Source of the DNA: an uncultured delta proteobacterium
Lineage (GTDB): Bacteria; Myxococcota_A; Polyangia; Polyangiales; Polyangiaceae
Direction: 5' to 3'
Length of the DNA: 64,000 bases
NCBI GenBank assembly: GCA_963841435.1
Contig: CAWJCS010000004.1
Coordinates: forward strand, 32,001 to 96,000
The position numbers are program-made. How positions within the stretch are numbered: position 1 is the first letter of the stretch; each line of letters begins with the position of its first letter. Of this stretch, positions 15,001 to 21,000 are shown one piece after another.

Positions 15001-18000
15001 CCGAGAAGCCCTCGAACGTCGCGTTCTACGTGGCCGTGACCGAACAGGGGGAGCCCGTGACCGATCTCGAGCCGAAGGACTTCAAGATCTACGAAAACGA
15101 TCAGCTCCTTTCGCCCGGTCAGATCGGGCGGACGTTGCTCGCCGTCGACGCCGTGACCGATCAGCGCGCGCTCTTGCTCGTGGACTTGAGCGGCAATCCA
15201 GGCGTCGATCAGCGCGCGCTCTACGCCCAGGCTGCCGCGGCGTTCGTGCGCAAGCTCGTCGAGAGCATGCCGGTCAGCGTGCGCGCGTACGCCGGCGGAG
15301 AGCGGCTGCTCGGCGTGGCCGACTTCGCGCGTGGGGCGACGCGCGTCGCCGTTCCGGGCCTGGCGACGCTGAAATCATCTGATACGTCGCGCAATCTGAA
15401 CGGCGCGATCCGGGCCGGACTCGAAGAGCTCGACACGCACCAGGGCTCGACCGAAAAGCCCATCAAGCTCGGGACGCTCGTCGTGTTCGCTCGCGGCCCG
15501 GACCTTGCGGGTCGCGTCCCCGAGGACGCCGTTAGCGACGCGCTCGGCGAGACGAAGCACGCCGTGCTCGGCATCGTCATCGGCCCCGATGCTTCCCAGC
15601 TCGATTTCCTGCCGGGTGGCGTCACCCACTCGCAGGACGGCGACGCGCTGCCCATCGCGTTCGAGGAGGCCGGCTCGCGCGTCGCCAAGCTCGCCCACGG
15701 TCACTACCTGGTGGCGTACTGCTCGCCGGCGCGCGCCGGGACGCGCAACGTGCGTCTCGAGGTCGCGTACACGAACGCCGAGGGCAGCGAGCTCAGCGGC
15801 GACACCTACTACGAGCTCGACGCGACCGACTTTCGTTCGGGTTGCGACTCGAGCAAGCTGCCGCGCTTCGAGAAGCCGCCCGCGCAGAAGGGGGCCACGG
15901 CGACGCCCGCCACGGCGACGCCCGGTCCCGCGAGCGCCACCGAAGCGGAGCCCGAGGTCGTCGCACCGCCATCGGGCGGGGACTACGCCCAGTGAGCGCC
16001 CCGCCCGGCCCCAGCCCGGTGCGCGTCACGCTGGTGGAGGAGGAAGTGATCCGCGACGGCGGGCCCCGCACCGTGCGCTATTCCGTACGGCACAACGCGG
16101 GCTGGGTGCACGCGACCTCCCACCCGAGTGCGGCGGTAAAATCCCTGGATCGTGGCCCGGGGGTCGTGTTCCGAAGGCACGTCACGCTGCTGCTCGCCCC
16201 CGGCACCGAGGTCGAGCGGGTCGCGCTCGGTCCGGCGCGTCGCACTGCCTCGACGCTCGAGCACCTTACGGGTGGCGCGCGTGGTCCTCGGCAGCGACGG
16301 GACGCGACCCGGTTGCGCGTGGGCTCGAACGGCGCGCTCGAGCCCGAGGGTACAAAATAACGCGAGGGCGGCGTCGGTTTCCCGAGCCGCCCTCGCGGAA
16401 GCTGCTTGCCAGTGGTGGGCGCCATCGCGCCGCCTGCCGAGGTTCTCACCGGCTCCCCGATCCGGAGATCGGGGCATCGTTGACGACGAGTGGGTTTTCC
16501 GAACATCGTGACCGCTCGGGTTCGCGCCCATTGGTCACGCGAGGATGGCGACGGTGTTGGCGTTCGCCAGCTTCGATCGACGGGTGCCGGTTGCATCTCG
16601 CCCTCGTGGGGCTCGGCGCGGCGCAAGCGCCACGCGTGCCGGACCCTCTGCGCCGTTGGCTGAGAGAGCCCAGGGTCGGTGCCGTCGATGTCTGACGCTC
16701 CCTGTCGGCTCGCGGCCACCCCGCGCCGGCTTTCCAAGCTGCCGGCCGAGGCCGCCGACCCTTTCGGGTCGGAGCCGCGTGCCCAGGGCACCGGGGCGCC
16801 CACACCCGGATTAGGGATGCAGAGCCACGTGGTGCCCGAAGCGTCTCGTCCTGTCGATGCTCGCAGTGTTGCCACCGTGACTGCCGATCCCTGGCCTTTG
16901 GCCAACGACGCGGGGCAGGACGGGCCGAGCTTCCAGGCGCCTCCGCGCGGCTCCGTCGAGAGCACACGCGGCCACGCCGTGGATCGGGCCGGCCGAGCGT
17001 CCTTGCGGAACTCTGCCTGCCCTGGACCCGTCGATCGAGGACGTGCAAACCCACTTGTCAAAGATCAGCACCCGCGGTTCCGTGTCGGATTGCCGTCGCC
17101 GGGCCCGTTAGGGTCGGCGAGCGGCGGGCGTTGCGATTCACGTCGCTTCACCCGCTTCGGCTTCCGGACCCGCGCTCCGCATCGGCGTTCTCTTCCGAGG
17201 GGGGGCACGGCCCGTTGGCCTCTGACGCTTCCGGGCTCGCGGGGCGAGCGGTCTTGCGACGCACTCGAACCACGCACCCTGCACCTGCCGCCCCGGAGAC
17301 TCTGGCGTGAACCGAGACCCGGATGCGAGCGGGTGAGAAGCGCCTTCCATCGACGACGAGAGCCCAAAAGCTCGCGCCCCGCACATCGCTGTGCGGGCAT
17401 GCCGCGCATTCGGCGAACGGGGGACGAGTCCCACGCACGCCTAGACTCACCCGGTCCGACACGGCCGCAACCGCGCCCGACTCGGGGGAACCACACAGCA
17501 AGCGCCGACTTCTGCAGTCGACACGAAACCCGAGCACACCCGCCGGTGACCCGTTACCTCGTCCGCCGCGCGGTCACCCTCGCGGCGGTTGCCAGGTTTG
17601 GCTACGAGCGGCGAGATGCGAGCTTTCGCTCGAGCCCACCGGCCGTGTCGCCCCTCTCGAGCACGCACATGGCTGTGCGGAGGCCCAGGAGGAGACGGTC
17701 ACGGGCTCCCTTCGTCGTCGTGCTCGCGGGTGGCGCAGCCTGGAGCGCTGTGCACTCACGAGTTGACCGAGGCGATCACCATGTGCCCGCGCGAACGGAC
17801 GCACGGTGGTTGCCGCCAGGAAGCCTTCCCGCCACGAGATGCCGCGCCCGGAGGCGCTGCACGCCACCACCACTAGGGTGGCAAACGACGCTTTTTTCGC
17901 GCGCCGCGCGACTGCCCTCGACGAGGCCAGGGCGCAAACGTGCGGCAACGAGCACCGACCAGGGTGGCTCAGCTGCCAGCCCGGTCGCCGCCCGCTGCGG

Positions 18001-21000
18001 CGTCCCCGTGACGTTCTGCGAAACGTGTCACCCGCGAGCAGATGTGCCGCGAGCTTCATTAAATAATCTAACCACCGAAGCGTCATGATTCAAGCCCAAA
18101 ACGCGCATGATCGTTGCTATTTTTTTCCACAGCTTGTCTTCAGGTTTCGGTCCCGCCGGGGTTGATGTAGTGAATCGTGCTCTCGACCAAGGATAAAAAG
18201 TGCCGATCGATCTTGGGATTCTGCAGGGTGAGCGCGACCTACTCAGGGAAGCGCTGCGTGAGACGGAAGCCGACGTCCGCAAGGTCGAGGCAGATCTCAA
18301 GACGCTTCGCCAGCGCGAGATCCAGACGAAGCGCGAGATTGAAGCGCTCACGACTCTGATTGAGATGAAAGAGCAGCGCGACGCGAAGGGACCGGACGCC
18401 GGCTAGCGCTCAGAGCTTCGTCTTGCCGAGCTCGAGGACGCGGGCGAACTCGCCCGGCGTGACCGGTACCACCGAGAGGCGAGAACGCCTCAAGAGCTGG
18501 ATCGAGGCGAGCTTCTTGTCGGCGCGAATGGCTTCGAGTGAAACGGGGCTGGCCAGCGCCTTCACGGGCGCCACGTTAACGGCGGACCAGTCGCCCTCCT
18601 TCGCGGTCGGATCGGGGTAGGCCGTGCGCGCGACCTTGGCTACGCCGACGACTTCCTTGCCCTCGTTCGAGTGATAGAAGAGCAGGAGATCGCCCTTCTT
18701 CATGGCACGCAGGTTGTTGCGCGCCTCGAAGTTTCTGACGCCGTCCCAGCGCGTGAGCTTGTCCTTCTGCAGCGTTTCGAAGGCGTATTTGTAGGGCTCG
18801 CTCTTCACCAGGAAATGAGCCGGCATGGCGCGGACGATAGACAAGCCCCGTGCTGCTTGGAAGCGCCCATCGCTCCGCGCGTCGCCCCCGCGGGCGTTCG
18901 CTCGATGCGCCGAGGGGGGTCAGGGTGCCGGAGCGAACCGTTTCGGTCGGTTGACGTCGTCGATGTCGACGTAGATCGGGCAGTGGTCGCTCAGGCGCTC
19001 GACGTCGCGCTCGGGCGGGTGGCCACCCGAGCAGCCGAGCTCCGCGCAATAGCCGGACACGACGAGCTTGCGCCCCGAGGGTAGCTCGCCCAGATCGCTC
19101 GCGGCCGCCCAGTCGAGCAACGTGGTGCGTCCCTCGTAGAAGTGCGAGCAGGCGGGTGCCGCGTCGAGCCGGCGCAGGGCGGGGGAGCGAGCGGCCAGGG
19201 TCCGGTCTGCTTCGGCGAGCTCTTCGAGCGCCGACACGGACGGGGAGCAACGAGGGCACCCCATGCTGTTCATGTCGCCGATCACGAGCACGTCGTCGTC
19301 ACCGCCGAGCGCGCGCGCGGCCGACACGGCATCGGCGAAGGAATTTAGCGACTTTTCCCGGAGCGAAAGCGCGCGGCGGTCGGTGCCGCTCTTCAGGTGG
19401 ACGGCGATCACCGCAAGGTCGAGCCCACCCGGGAAGGCGAAGCGCGCCGCGAGGCCGGGGCGAAGCTGGTCCTTGCAGGGCTCACCGTGCGGGTTGAGCG
19501 CGCCGACGGTCGCGCTGCCTAGCAGCCGGGCGCGGCGCGCATCGAAGAGCAGCCCTACGTGCTGCTGGGACGCCCGAGGGCAGTCGTCGAGAACCACCTC
19601 GAAACGGCCGCCCGTGATGAGGTCGAGCTCCGCGCGCAGGGCGGAAAGCGCCTGGCTCGGGCGCGCTCCCGGCTTGATCTCCTCGATGGCGAGCACGTCG
19701 ACGCCGAGGAAGGCGACGGCGCAGGCGAGCCATTTCACGTCCGTGCCGGGACCCTTGGGTGACTTGCCGGGCCTGCCATCGGGAAACCAATGCAGGTTCC
19801 ACGCGCCGAGCCGTGCGACGCCGGCCGGCCGTCGCGCCCCAGCGTGGGCGAGGGCTGCCCGGCATGCGTCCGGGTCGTGAAAGGGCGACGCCGAAGGGAG
19901 CGGGGCGCCCTTTTTCGCCGATGTCGAAGGGCGCGCTGCGTGTTGGCCGGCGTCGCGCGAGCGGGGCCGGTGCTTTCCCGGCTCGGCATGGCTCGTCGTC
20001 CGGCGGGAGGCGCCGAACAGCGCCACGAGCACGATCCCGATGAGGACGACGAGCGCGCGCGTTCGCTTCAATGCAACGCCGGGACTTCGATCTGCCTTTG
20101 CCGCTCGGCGCCCGGCCCGAGAAGCCTGACGAGGTCCGGCTTCTCGATGGTTTCACGGTCGAGCAGCTCGATGACGAGCCGGTCGAGCTCCGGGCGGCGT
20201 GATTGCAAGAGCTGGCCGGCCGCTTCGAGGGCCTCGGCGAGGAAGCGGCGCGCCTCACCCTCGATGAGGTGGACGGTCGCGTCGCTCGTCTGGCCTTCGG
20301 TGGCGAGCATCTGGCCGAGGAACGGGTGCTCGGTGCGATGCTCGTGGTAGACGGGGCCGACCTTCGGGCTCATCCCGTAGTGCGCGACCATCTTGAAGGC
20401 GATGTCCGTCGCGCGCTTGAGGTCGCTCTCGGCGCCCGATGACACGTTGCCGAGCACGGCGCGCTCCGCCGCATAGCCGCCCAGCAGCACGCGCAGCGTG
20501 TCACGGAGCTCGGGCTCGGTGAGGATGTGACGATCGGCTCCCGGCGCCTGCTGCGTGACCCCGAGCGCCATGCCGCGCGGGATGATGGTCACGCGGTGCA
20601 GCGGCTCCGCTGACTCCGAGAAGTGGGCGACCACGGCGTGCCCGGATTCGTGCACGGCAACACGCTTTCGTTCCAGCGGGTCGAGCTTGGTCTCGCGCGG
20701 ATCCCCGAGCACGATCTTGTCGTAAGCGTTCGTGAAATCGTTCATGCCCACGGCATCGGCGCCACGGCGCGTCGCGTTCAGGGCGGCCTCGTTGGCGAGG
20801 TTCGCGAGATCGGCGCCCGAGAAGCCGGGCGTGTTGCGCGCGATCTCGCCGAGGTCGACGTCGGGCACGAGTGGGATCTCGCGCGTGTGCACCTCGAGGA
20901 TCGCCTTTCTCGCGCCGACCTCGGGGCGATCGATGATCACGCGTCGATCGAAGCGTCCGGGCCGGAGGAGCGCGGGGTCGAGCACGTCGGGCCTGTTGGT

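Follow-up and report, generated by a model that had tools for sequence, protein, structure and literature searches.

A probable free-standing gene encoding a very large structured RNA

The minus strand of positions 16352-18060, in the 64,000-nucleotide stretch of DNA analysed here (the window), probably carries a stand-alone gene whose product is a very large, structured, non-coding RNA. If so, it would far exceed in size every other bacterial structured RNA apart from those of the ribosome; it is an RNA without known relatives, present in many soil myxobacteria belonging to a single order. The initial annotation had already placed here a free-standing gene whose product, a large structured RNA, lacks coding capacity, and had listed a conserved 5' motif, a 3' multi-helix domain and a terminator. 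These three elements were found again in the window and in its relatives (Table 1), and the comparisons reported below support this description of the locus. A search of the 7.78-Mb assembly returned a single occurrence of the gene, which shows full-length, collinear homology with the locus of a relative, L034.

Table 1. Features of the predicted RNA gene and its surroundings in the window
Feature	Positions	Strand	Remarks
Large non-coding RNA gene	16352-18060	-	About 1.7 kb; predicted start near 18057-18060, extending to the terminator T-run
Upstream box array	18123-18142	-	TGTGGAAAA at 18131-18123 and degenerate copy TGAAGACAA at 18142-18134
Sigma-70-like promoter	18065-18093	-	-35 TTGAAT (18093-18088), 17-nt spacer, -10 TAGATT (18070-18065); read from the sequence
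Conserved 5' motif GAAGCTCGCGGCACATC	18041-18057	-	Start of the RNA
Internal module 1 (GGUGUGCUCG ... CUGCAGAAGUCGG)	17448-17539	-	Profile m1 and alignment
Internal module 2 (GGGUGCUG ... UUUGCACGUCCUCG)	17016-17078	-	Diverged copy of the module-1 core; placed by global alignment
3' multi-helix domain	16345-16722	-	Alignment A1
Core of the 3' domain	16489-16581	-	Basis of model R1; GAAGCUG helix and GCGCGAA-loop hairpin
Intrinsic terminator	16354-16396	-	15-bp G+C stem (about 16396-16362), GNRA loop (GAAA), T-run 16360-16354 (UUAUUUU)
EVE-domain protein gene, upstream neighbour	18410-18844	-	Pfam EVE, E 4.6e-42; not part of the RNA gene
365-aa protein gene, convergent downstream neighbour	14898-15995	+	Within a VWA-domain protein cluster; outside the RNA gene

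Homologs of the RNA gene and their distribution

Homologs were recovered by three independent routes, namely a pattern for the 5' motif, a profile of the 3' end and the covariance model R1. Of 383 family genomes, 82 contained the 5' pattern; its matches numbered 86, as compared with 11 for a reversed-pattern control. In 67 of the 85 loci selected with this pattern, the 5' motif and the 3'-end profile were found on the same strand, 0.85-2.9 kb apart, and the units that they delimit are collinear. The other 18 comprised 11 loci with the 5' profile, five chance matches and two loci at contig ends; ten of those 11 also match a module, L039 having the 5' profile alone.

Model R1 scored 66.2 bits on the core of the 3' domain, the runner-up in the window reaching 16.4 bits. 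It gave one match each in 55 of 151 family genomes, belonging to 40 of 89 genera, in line with the 52 genomes and 37 genera counted previously; the RNA is present in about 36-40% of family genomes. A restriction of the gene to the family had been implied. This held in a class-wide sample, where R1 matched none of 142 genomes from 29 other families, but not in a deeper sample of the same order, where 10 of 127 genomes, from eight other families, were positive. Nine of these ten loci, when fetched, proved to be full-length; the 5' motif varies outside the family, with retention of the CGCG...CGCG stem. The single-copy status stated initially was not strictly upheld either, two copies each being found in G231, G233 and G533.

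The RNA gene is dispensable, as had been stated. It is missing from most congeners, and the deletion allele reported in two of them was confirmed and extended to three (G271, G272 and G291), all with a precise loss at the same locus. The empty sites of these congeners contain no remnant of the promoter motif or of the terminator, which argues against the RNA being the cargo of a mobile element or prophage. Such an origin might be suspected from the patchy distribution, from the presence/absence polymorphism at one site among congeners and from the two copies in three genomes. Yet blastn gave no match in 72,556 plasmid and 50,697 phage records, none of 23 viral-contig pattern matches fitted the wider 5' or 3' profiles, and the flanks contain housekeeping-type genes, with synteny kept across several genera. 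We consequently regard a mobile cargo as highly improbable.

Absence of coding capacity and of a match to described RNA families

The spread of GC content between codon positions amounted to 0.02-0.14 in the region 16200-18120, and to 0.3-0.5 in the flanking genes. In the 67 homologous units, the highest spread over 300 nt was 0.17 in the median and never above 0.28, as compared with 61 upstream flanks in which the median was 0.49 and no value was below 0.33. Codon periodicity was absent from all 67 units, in agreement with the lack of coding capacity noted before. ORFs opened at a conserved GAUG(A)UG were 3-323 aa long in the 56 units scored and shared no conserved peptide, and no Pfam match was obtained for the longest sense ORF tested (15983-16531). 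The missing periodicity, the lack of a shared frame or peptide and the lack of a family match speak against a protein-coding gene. We also considered a decayed protein-coding gene or a neutral spacer. Long ORFs are indeed present in all frames, as in any DNA with 70% G+C, but the uniform lack of periodicity, the negative Pfam search and the conservation and compensatory pairing across an order make this explanation almost inconceivable; within the limits of sequence analysis, it can already be regarded as refuted.

The absence of a described RNA family was also reproduced. No Rfam match was found inside 16352-18060 at E ≤ 1, nor in eight homologous loci (65.7 kb) at E ≤ 0.05. There was thus no covariance-model match to any family described in Rfam 15, including OLE, GOLLD, ROOL, HEARO, raiA, rRNAs, group I and II introns, RNase P, tmRNA and 6S.

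Compensatory changes along the RNA

Structure-blind MAFFT alignments were made for the 3' domain (A1) and for the body, with column-shuffle controls. Over the whole length, they support about 314 consensus pairs that compensatory changes have preserved on the sense strand, with the proviso that the structure was predicted on the same alignments as those used to count the pairs and that the shuffle statistics ignore phylogeny. In the 3' domain, which has 60 consensus pairs, 86.1% of the cells were paired, the shuffles reaching 72.0% and the slid controls 37-43%. Changes on both sides were observed in 55 of the 60 pairs, where 32 of 40 had been reported earlier, and the cells with double changes numbered 623 as compared with 204 in shuffles, none of 500 shuffles reaching the observed value. 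In 17 held-out sequences outside the model, 87.4% of the cells were paired (65.2% in shuffles, 30-47% in slid controls), with double changes in 12 of 15 pairs, these counts coming from a model-fitted alignment (A4).

The body was analysed in three chunks with 64 sequences. The chunks contained 91, 108 and 55 pairs, and at least two double-change cells were counted for 64, 85 and 40 of them, respectively; after column shuffling and refolding, the means for such pairs were 9, 14 and 4 (maxima 13, 20 and 8). The consensus energies were -115, -153 and -43.5 kcal/mol, as compared with -49, -33 and -12 for shuffled columns and -78, -92 and -20 kcal/mol for the reverse complement. The sense-strand bias in folding that had been noted previously is confirmed by these energies, and also when the 3'-terminal 1000 nt are folded as a single sequence (sense strand, z = -5.27; antisense strand, z = -3.19). 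The sense-strand pairs include G-U pairs. Taken together, compensatory pairs on the predicted transcribed strand are more numerous than in the controls, whether shuffled, slid, column-shuffled or reverse-complemented. The unit of the window, one of the shortest, can form only 178 of the 254 body consensus pairs. Covariation is nearly absent from the first 100 nt of the RNA, for which there are two competing foldings, consistent with the weak 5'-end structure mentioned in the initial annotation.

A predicted single transcript with related internal modules

At the 3' end of the gene, a G+C-rich hairpin is followed by a T-run. The corresponding hairpin of L034 has a 15-pair stem and T7, and the terminator stem (helix 12 of alignment A1) shows double-sided changes in 12 of 14 pairs. 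In the window and in L034, the 3' site is the only terminator-like one within the unit, and no internal terminator-like site was found within the L103 and L038 units.

Profile m1 of module 1 matched 66 of the 67 units at collinear positions, and profile m2 of module 2 matched 63, though it does not detect the window's own module-2 copy. The two modules had been called homologous. Their consensus sequences do have a common core of about 50 nt (41 of 61 positions identical), but the profiles cross-match in only 9 and 6 of the 67 units.

We considered the possibility that the locus gives rise to several shorter structured RNAs, either clustered or cut from a precursor, rather than to one molecule of 1.7 kb. 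The modular make-up, with two internal modules that are related to each other, is compatible with this, and so are the range of unit lengths (0.85-2.9 kb, the G070 unit being reduced to 852 nt) and the absence of detectable modules in the congeners G290, G284 and G280. However, each locus has just one conserved promoter and one conserved terminator, the four units mentioned above are free of internal terminator-like sites, the order of the blocks is constant across all lineages, and RNAalifold predicts long-range pairs that enclose several hundred nucleotides. Several shorter RNAs thus appear unlikely, though less so than the other alternatives. The preferred reading is that a single transcript would run from the sigma-70-type promoter to the GNRA-capped terminator, as suggested by conservation and position.

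The predicted promoter and its array of DnaA-type boxes

The predicted window promoter (TTGAAT-17-TAGATT) agrees with the consensus at 8 of 12 positions, and relatives have TTGC-type -35 and A-rich -10 hexamers at conserved positions. A strict sigma-70 scan was negative in the window and in three relatives. Both the conservation of the promoter region and the negative strict scan were already on record. From conservation and position, we infer a single transcription unit driven by a sigma-70-type promoter.

TGTGGAnAA was found at -130 to -40 in 64 of the 67 loci and its TGTGGA core in 66 of 67, as compared with 2 of 67 in a control window (either strand). The cores cluster at -75, -87, -98 and -109. 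Relatives have up to four TGTGGAnAA boxes in an 11-12-nt phase upstream of the promoter, the window's own array including one intact box only, and phased TGTGGA arrays are also present in several other-family loci. These 9-mers, which are placed at a conserved position, match TTATCCACA/TTGTCCACA, and we take them to be of the DnaA-box type. The same boxes were found upstream of dnaA in the four genomes checked (G000, G086, G161 and G187). Alternatively, a direct repeat of CTGTGGA with an A/T-rich spacer and an 11-nt period would presumably also suit a response regulator of the OmpR/PhoB type.

DnaA is known to control promoters and to bind box loci, as in the autoregulation of dnaA and at datA/DARS-type sites. 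The present locus resembles these in its direct 9-mer arrays with one-turn spacing upstream of a promoter and in sharing its box with the upstream region of dnaA. It differs in that the product would be a 2-kb structured RNA; we know of no precedent for a DnaA-controlled structured RNA of 2 kb. The candidate DnaA-type boxes apparently switch on the RNA promoter, and their conservation and position suggest that the phased array, at about -70 to -105, would govern it. With the promoter under such boxes, synthesis of the RNA would follow DnaA status and therefore the state of replication or growth.

A 25-30 bp A/T-rich stretch adjoins the box array in this 70% G+C genome. This proximity raised the question of whether the conserved element is in fact DNA, the RNA being incidental. 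It might bind DnaA to titrate or reactivate it, or serve as an accessory origin that includes an unwinding region. This is very unlikely, since the boxes span less than 60 bp whereas both conservation and compensatory changes are seen over 2 kb, pairs on the sense strand include G-U, folding is better for the sense than for the antisense strand and the unit closes with a conserved terminator. Furthermore, most genomes lack the locus, and in G000 it is on a different contig from dnaA.

Genes flanking the RNA gene

In the window, the RNA gene follows ftsH, nuclease-like and EVE genes on the same strand, and in five genera a 773-aa gene of unknown kind lies downstream on the same strand. These arrangements would be compatible with a cis-regulatory RNA, the locus being a very long leader or 3' UTR that belongs to one of the neighbours. 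Yet the RNA gene has its own conserved promoter and strong terminator, the downstream genes are often convergent, and none of the protein neighbours is constant among the 67 loci, whose chromosomal sites vary: the largest flank clusters cover 15, 14, 13 and 13 loci, and the EVE gene is upstream on the same strand in 8. A cis-regulatory leader or riboswitch was rejected, as no constant same-strand downstream gene was found, and a leader or 3' UTR has in our opinion very little probability.

In one clade, a divergent RlmN-like radical-SAM paralog is encoded within 0-400 nt of the RNA gene in 10 of 27 genera. It scores 239 bits with TIGR00048, under the cut-off of 290 bits, and a true RlmN is encoded elsewhere in the five genomes checked. 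G000 has no such paralog, and in five other-family genomes neither the RlmN-like gene nor the RR-EAL gene adjoins the RNA, a further point against a leader or 3' UTR. The paralog is retained in genomes without the RNA and is therefore not an obligatory partner.

Comparison with known large RNAs

To our knowledge, no bacterial structured RNAs other than the 16S and 23S rRNAs are of similar length; these, too, have several domains and hundreds of covarying pairs. Unlike these, the RNA described here has no Rfam rRNA match, is dispensable, patchy and usually single-copy, and lies outside an rRNA operon. GOLLD and ROOL, which are about 600-800 nt long and often found in prophages near tRNA genes, are likewise giant ornate bacterial RNAs of unknown function. 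The window RNA differs from them in its lack of phage and plasmid matches, its syntenic chromosomal context and the absence of an Rfam match. OLE RNA (ornate, large, extremophilic), of about 600 nt, is similarly an orphan RNA from a single bacterial lineage, free-standing, noncoding and highly structured, in which many helices covary. It belongs to anaerobic Firmicutes and has linked partner protein genes, whereas the present RNA is myxobacterial, measures 0.85-2.9 kb and has no constant protein neighbour.

According to PMC3413148 and PMC12286853, OLE is presumed to function as a particle rather than in cis regulation; a partner protein, OAP, is named in the abstract of PMC3413148. By analogy, the folded RNA may work in trans as a compact multi-domain particle, either a ribonucleoprotein scaffold or an RNA-only assembly, and would then not be a cis regulator. 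According to the abstract of PMC12286853, GOLLD and ROOL form RNA-only homo-oligomeric complexes, and this is a possible mode for the window RNA too. In the clade that has the RlmN-like paralog, the latter might, again by analogy, act as a methyltransferase modifying the RNA.

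A minus-strand unit without coding signal

The window has a G+C content of about 70%, so that long ORFs are present in all six frames and are no evidence of coding by themselves. The decisive criterion for coding status at 16200-18120 was codon-position GC, whose spread was 0.02-0.14 there as compared with 0.3-0.5 for the flanking genes. The spread was likewise low in the 67 units described below and no conserved small ORF was found, which bears out the lack of coding capacity stated in the initial annotation; a conserved small ORF opening at a GAUGAUG motif was considered and rejected. 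The G+C content was lowered (0.55-0.61) solely at 17850-18450, the region upstream of the RNA gene. A single copy of the stretch is present in the 7.78-Mb assembly, and Rfam gave no match inside it at E<=1, which ruled out a known RNA family. The folding z-score of the 3' 1000 nt was -5.27 for the sense strand versus -3.19 for the antisense strand (20 shuffles each). A search of sequencing runs with 16300-18200 retrieved no RNA runs among the indexed matches; these were limited to three DNA runs from soil metagenomes, each sharing a small fraction of words.

Features of the RNA gene and its surroundings (window positions)
Feature	Position	Strand	Remark
ftsH, 383-aa protein gene, EVE-domain gene	18920-21990	-	in this order; 383-aa protein with weak ExeM/NucH nuclease-domain match
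68-aa ORF, coiled-coil-like	18200-18406	+	between EVE gene and RNA promoter
Upstream box TGTGGAAAA	18131-18123	-	then A-tract; read from sequence
A-tract, short variable hairpin, T-tract	18094-18122	-	between box array and -35
Putative -35 TTGAAT	18093-18088	-	17-nt spacer to -10
Putative -10 TAGATT	18070-18065	-	read from sequence
5' motif GAAGCTCGCGGCACATC	18057-18041	-	read from sequence
G+C-rich body, ~1.65 kb	between 5' motif and terminal hairpin	-	
Module 1	17448-17539		
Module 2	17016-17078		
3'-domain core (model R1)	16489-16581		
Long terminal hairpin, GAAA cap	~16396-16362	-	then TTATTTT at 16360-16354

Relatives share a common architecture

Plain BLASTN with the whole 1.7 kb against 201 genomes of the family (Polyangiaceae) recovered just the last 33-86 nt, in 9 genomes, short G+C-rich matches not being counted as homologs. 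In all nine loci, a 2-3-kb stretch without codon periodicity lay directly upstream of the match. One of them, L034, could be aligned by nhmmer across positions 4-1707 of the RNA stretch (E 6.7e-30), and sensitive pairwise comparison yielded collinear blocks at the promoter with the 5' end, in the middle of the unit, in the 3' domain and at the terminator.

Five loci served to derive an exact 5' pattern. It was found in 82 of 383 family genomes (33 of 89 genera), with 86 matches in these genomes versus 11 (our count) for the reversed pattern. We sorted 85 fetched pattern loci by 5', 3' and module profiles. In 67 of them the 3'-end profile lay 0.85-2.9 kb downstream on the same strand (median unit ~2.07 kb), the window's unit, cut at 1771 nt (~1.7 kb from motif to terminator), being among the shortest. 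Eleven loci showed the 5' profile with a diverged or more distant 3' end; ten of these also matched a module and one (L039) had the 5' profile only. The remainder were chance matches (5/85) and contig-end loci (2/85). None of the 67 units displayed coding periodicity: the highest 300-nt spread per unit was 0.17 (median) and never above 0.28, as compared with 0.49 (median) and never below 0.33 in 61 upstream flanks. The absence of internal terminator-like sites in the 4 loci examined, together with the single conserved promoter, argues for one predicted transcript. A short form was observed at L099 (genome G070), with 852 nt from 5' motif to terminator and neither module detected at its usual place.

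Base pairing is conserved along the unit

Covariation in the 3' domain was assessed on a plain MAFFT alignment (A1) of the last ~400 nt of the 67 units, for which RNAalifold gave a consensus of 60 pairs. Standard pairs occupied 86.1% of the cells versus 72.0% after shuffling (observed value reached in 0 of 500 shuffles) and 37-43% when the partners were slid by 1-3 columns. Changes on both sides were seen in 55 of the 60 pairs, with 623 double-change cells as compared with 204 in shuffles and 139-180 in the slid controls. Single pairs alternated freely (e.g. AU:24 CG:20 GC:17; GC:28 AU:20 CG:9), and the G-U pairs, which were frequent (GU:57 at one pair), are compatible with the minus strand only.

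The body was analyzed in 64 units, split at the two module anchors into three chunks that were aligned with MAFFT L-INS-i and folded with RNAalifold. In each chunk, ~84-86% of the cells were canonical, and pairs with double changes exceeded those obtained after column shuffling and refolding.

Consensus folds of the three body chunks
Chunk	Consensus pairs	Pairs with >=2 double-change cells	Same, column-shuffled and refolded	Energy (kcal/mol)	Shuffled	Reverse complement
c1	91	64	mean 9, max 13	-115	-49	-78
c2	108	85	mean 14, max 20	-153	-33	-92
c3	55	40	mean 4, max 8	-43.5	-12	-20

Adding the 60 pairs of the 3' domain brings the consensus to ~314 pairs. Of the 254 pairs in the body, the window's copy is able to form 178. 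Circularity in the choice of sequences was avoided by means of a held-out set of 17 loci (10 from other families and 7 family loci missed by the 5' pattern) that had no part in R1, a covariance model of the 3'-domain core with 15 pairs, built on 66 family sequences. In an alignment fitted to the model, which favours the structure, 87.4% of the held-out cells were paired versus 65.2% after shuffling and 30-47% after sliding, and 12 of the 15 pairs showed double changes.

The initial annotation had cautioned that there was little structure at the 5' end, and we concur: the sequence of the first 100 nt is strongly conserved with almost no covariation, and there are two competing folds. The first is a local hairpin (CGCGG-loop-CCGCG), for which L297 offers one compensatory example; in the second, UCGCGGC is paired with GCUGCGG 55 nt downstream. 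A helix closing the molecule between GGCACAUC and GAUG(A)UGCC was dropped, since one-sided variants were uncompensated.

Internal modules

Both internal blocks contain the core GUGCUCG ... UUGCAGAAGUCGG, and their consensus cores are the same at 41 of 61 defined positions, so that an internal duplication is likely at the level of motifs. Profile m1 found its own block in 66 of the 67 units and m2 in 63, the window's diverged copy being undetected by m2. The homology proposed earlier for the two modules stands for the shared core and consensus. Cross-matches between the profiles were limited to 9 and 6 units, the joint fold comprised just 6 pairs, and self-BLAST of the window's copy revealed no internal repeat, the kinship being visible in the family consensus only.

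The RNA belongs to the order Polyangiales

R1 proved specific in the 64-kb window, with 66.2 bits at its own site and 16.4 bits at the next best. In the family sample, it matched once in each of 55 of 151 genomes (40 of 89 genera), recovering, by our own comparison, ~32 of the 37 pattern-positive genomes as well as many pattern-negative ones. The absence from 142 genomes of 29 other families in the class-wide sample, on which the claim of a family-restricted RNA had been based, was reproduced with R1. The restriction itself could not be maintained: among 127 non-Polyangiaceae genomes of the order sample, R1 matched 10, belonging to 8 of the 23 families sampled there. Nine of the ten fetched loci were full-length relatives. 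In each, the 5' profile preceded the R1 match by 1.4-2.1 kb, the modules were collinear and ~2 kb were free of periodicity; several also had TGTGGA arrays (see below). The weakest locus, L301, was unconfirmed. Because of these matches and full-length relatives, the RNA is assigned to the order rather than to one family.

Scanning all bacteria with the 5' pattern gave at least 120 matches, mostly due to chance among the matches listed, and therefore says little on absence elsewhere. Among the matches listed, 8 loci fitted the wider 5' profile, seven of them in Polyangiaceae-type MAGs, and the true ones carried the labels Polyangiaceae, Polyangiales, Myxococcales, Byssovorax, Labilithrix or 'delta proteobacterium'. 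All 23 matches on viral contigs were chance matches, and blastn gave none in 72,556 plasmid and 50,697 phage records; a phage- or plasmid-borne RNA was rejected on these grounds.

One copy per genome, as initially annotated, is the rule, with the exception of G231, G233 and G533, which have two. The full copies in these genomes are on different contigs (L077/L078, L080/L081 and L294/L295, respectively) and could be true paralogs or reflect mixed bins.

A phased box array upstream of the putative promoter

The upstream consensus of the 67 loci reads aacCTGtGGAtAAcc.TGTGGA.AAaaAAa, ~17 nt, tTTTtt.gTTGC (-35), 17-18 nt, A-rich -10, ggAagTtcGCGGCACATC. TGTGGA cores occur at -75, -87, -98 and -109 from the 5' motif, i.e. 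one helical turn apart. At least one core was present in 66 of the 67 loci and at least two in 35, while TGTGGAnAA was found in 64; in a control window farther upstream, 2 of 67 loci had a core when both strands were counted. Other-family loci had up to four cores in 10-11-nt steps.

Read on the opposite strand, the DnaA-box consensus TTATCCACA is TGTGGATAA, and its high-G+C variant is TGTGGACAA. The relaxed box TGTGGAnAA is rare in G000, the window's own assembly (28 copies in 7.78 Mb, one of them at the RNA promoter); another copy, paired with an inverted TCCACA, is located an estimated ~120 nt upstream of dnaA. Boxes also lie directly upstream of dnaA in G086 (2), G161 (1) and G187 (1), where 0.01-0.06 per 7 kb are expected. 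As the phased boxes are of the DnaA type and such boxes also precede dnaA, we infer from sequence a predicted control of the RNA promoter by DnaA. An alternative is that the array is read by an OmpR/PhoB-type regulator, since such proteins read 11-nt direct repeats.

The perfect DnaA 9-mer (TGTGGATAA/TTATCCACA) was absent from the whole 7.78 Mb of G000, which also had no cluster of three relaxed boxes within 600 nt. It follows that the chromosomal origin of G000 either relies on degenerate boxes or falls within a gap of the assembly. A sigma-54 promoter at a GGCAC motif was discarded because its spacing does not fit the sigma-54 consensus and the TGC lacks conservation. The A-tract, short variable hairpin and T-tract that precede the -35 element recur in most loci, and their counterpart in L038 (3883-3897) scores as a terminator-like site; they may be an insulator against upstream transcription or an UP element.

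Neighbouring genes vary

In the window, the RNA gene follows ftsH, the nuclease-like gene and the EVE-domain gene on the same strand and is convergent with a VWA-like gene. No constant neighbour was found across the 67 loci, and since the neighbours vary, the RNA is not the leader of an adjacent gene. Two syntenic contexts span several genera. One comprises a divergent response-regulator/EAL gene and a convergent FadL-like gene; in the other (10 of 27 genera), a divergent radical-SAM gene lies 0-400 nt upstream.

This radical-SAM protein is an RlmN-like paralog, with 239 bits on the RlmN model (cut-off 290 bits); the true RlmN (313-333 bits) was encoded elsewhere in 5 of 5 genomes checked. By our own count, ~47 of 201 family genomes have orthologs of the paralog (>275 bits), which G000 lacks. 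In 13 paralog-containing genomes without the exact 5' pattern, the DNA beside the paralog held the full RNA in three (G073, G035, G075), the box array, promoter and first ~50 nt only in three (G046, G112, G005), and no trace of the RNA in seven. Furthermore, neither the paralog nor the EAL gene adjoined the RNA in 5 other-family genomes. We therefore rejected the response-regulator/EAL protein as a partner and the paralog as an obligatory one, the latter being a lineage-specific companion and at most an optional modifier.

The three loci with the 5' portion only (L272, L273 and L280, respectively) keep the TGTGGA box pair, but the non-coding DNA there amounts to only ~450-600 nt and the RNA body is gone; they represent truncated relics or, alternatively, short derivative RNAs. 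A third radical-SAM paralog of the RlmN/Cfr family, distinct from the true RlmN and a second paralog, is encoded at L109:5427-6545 (+), and its orthologs are common throughout one clade of the family; in G029 the gene is divided among three frames and may be broken. Nearly all congeners conserve the DNA of the 68-aa ORF next to the RNA promoter, and in some (G293, G289) the ORF is upstream of the EVE gene on the same strand, resembling a small two-gene unit; it matched protein families weakly, with E 0.0085 for KLRAQ and E 4e-4 for a plasmid replication DNA-binding family.

Discussion

We conclude that the structured RNA gene is real, new and of unusual size. It is not a mere DNA site, as indicated by the strand-specific pairing over 2 kb and the conserved terminator. 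That a conserved, structured and non-coding unit exists is well supported; transcription of the unit, its regulation by DnaA and its way of working are what we infer.

To our knowledge, bacterial structured RNAs longer than ~800 nt are essentially limited to rRNA. OLE, ROOL and GOLLD measure ~600-800 nt, and the present RNA is two to four times larger. Every large orphan RNA class that we know of has led to new biology or a new RNA architecture; the RNA-only cages described in PMC12286853 are one example. The size, the hundreds of covarying pairs, the probable internal duplication and the conserved 5' end make this RNA a prime target for structure probing and cryo-EM, and suggest that more large RNA machines await discovery in little-studied soil bacteria of high G+C content. 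Literature searches on Polyangiaceae or myxobacteria and non-coding or structured RNA yielded no description of such an RNA, nor did the excerpts of OLE/GOLLD/ROOL papers retrieved for large bacterial ncRNAs (PMC12286853, PMC3413148); the main text of a 50-genome ncRNA survey (PMC11109978) contained no myxobacterial terms.

A joint reading, which we consider rather unlikely as a whole, is that the RNA would be the largest known non-ribosomal structured RNA of bacteria, a multi-domain particle of 1.5-2.9 kb with more than 300 conserved base pairs. DnaA would set its synthesis via the phased box array, and the RNA in turn would influence the state of replication or growth in these slow growers with giant genomes; alternatively, it would build a novel kind of assembly, made of RNA alone or of RNA and protein. 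In one clade, the RNA would be methylated by the dedicated RlmN-like radical-SAM enzyme. The DnaA-type array offers a concrete, testable handle on the timing of synthesis and, if such control is true, would be the first link of the replication initiator to a giant non-coding RNA.

Natural alleles at one locus in the window's genus provide ready comparisons. As in G000, the RNA occupies the EVE/VWA-flanked site in G290, G284 and G280, where both ends are kept, the unit is ~1.5 kb and the 5' motif is CACACC. G271, G272 and G291 have the same flanks separated by a gap of ~200-440 nt with no gene remnant; these empty sites agree with the deletion allele described previously among congeners. The flanking genes were matched in all 47 congeners searched, G275 included.
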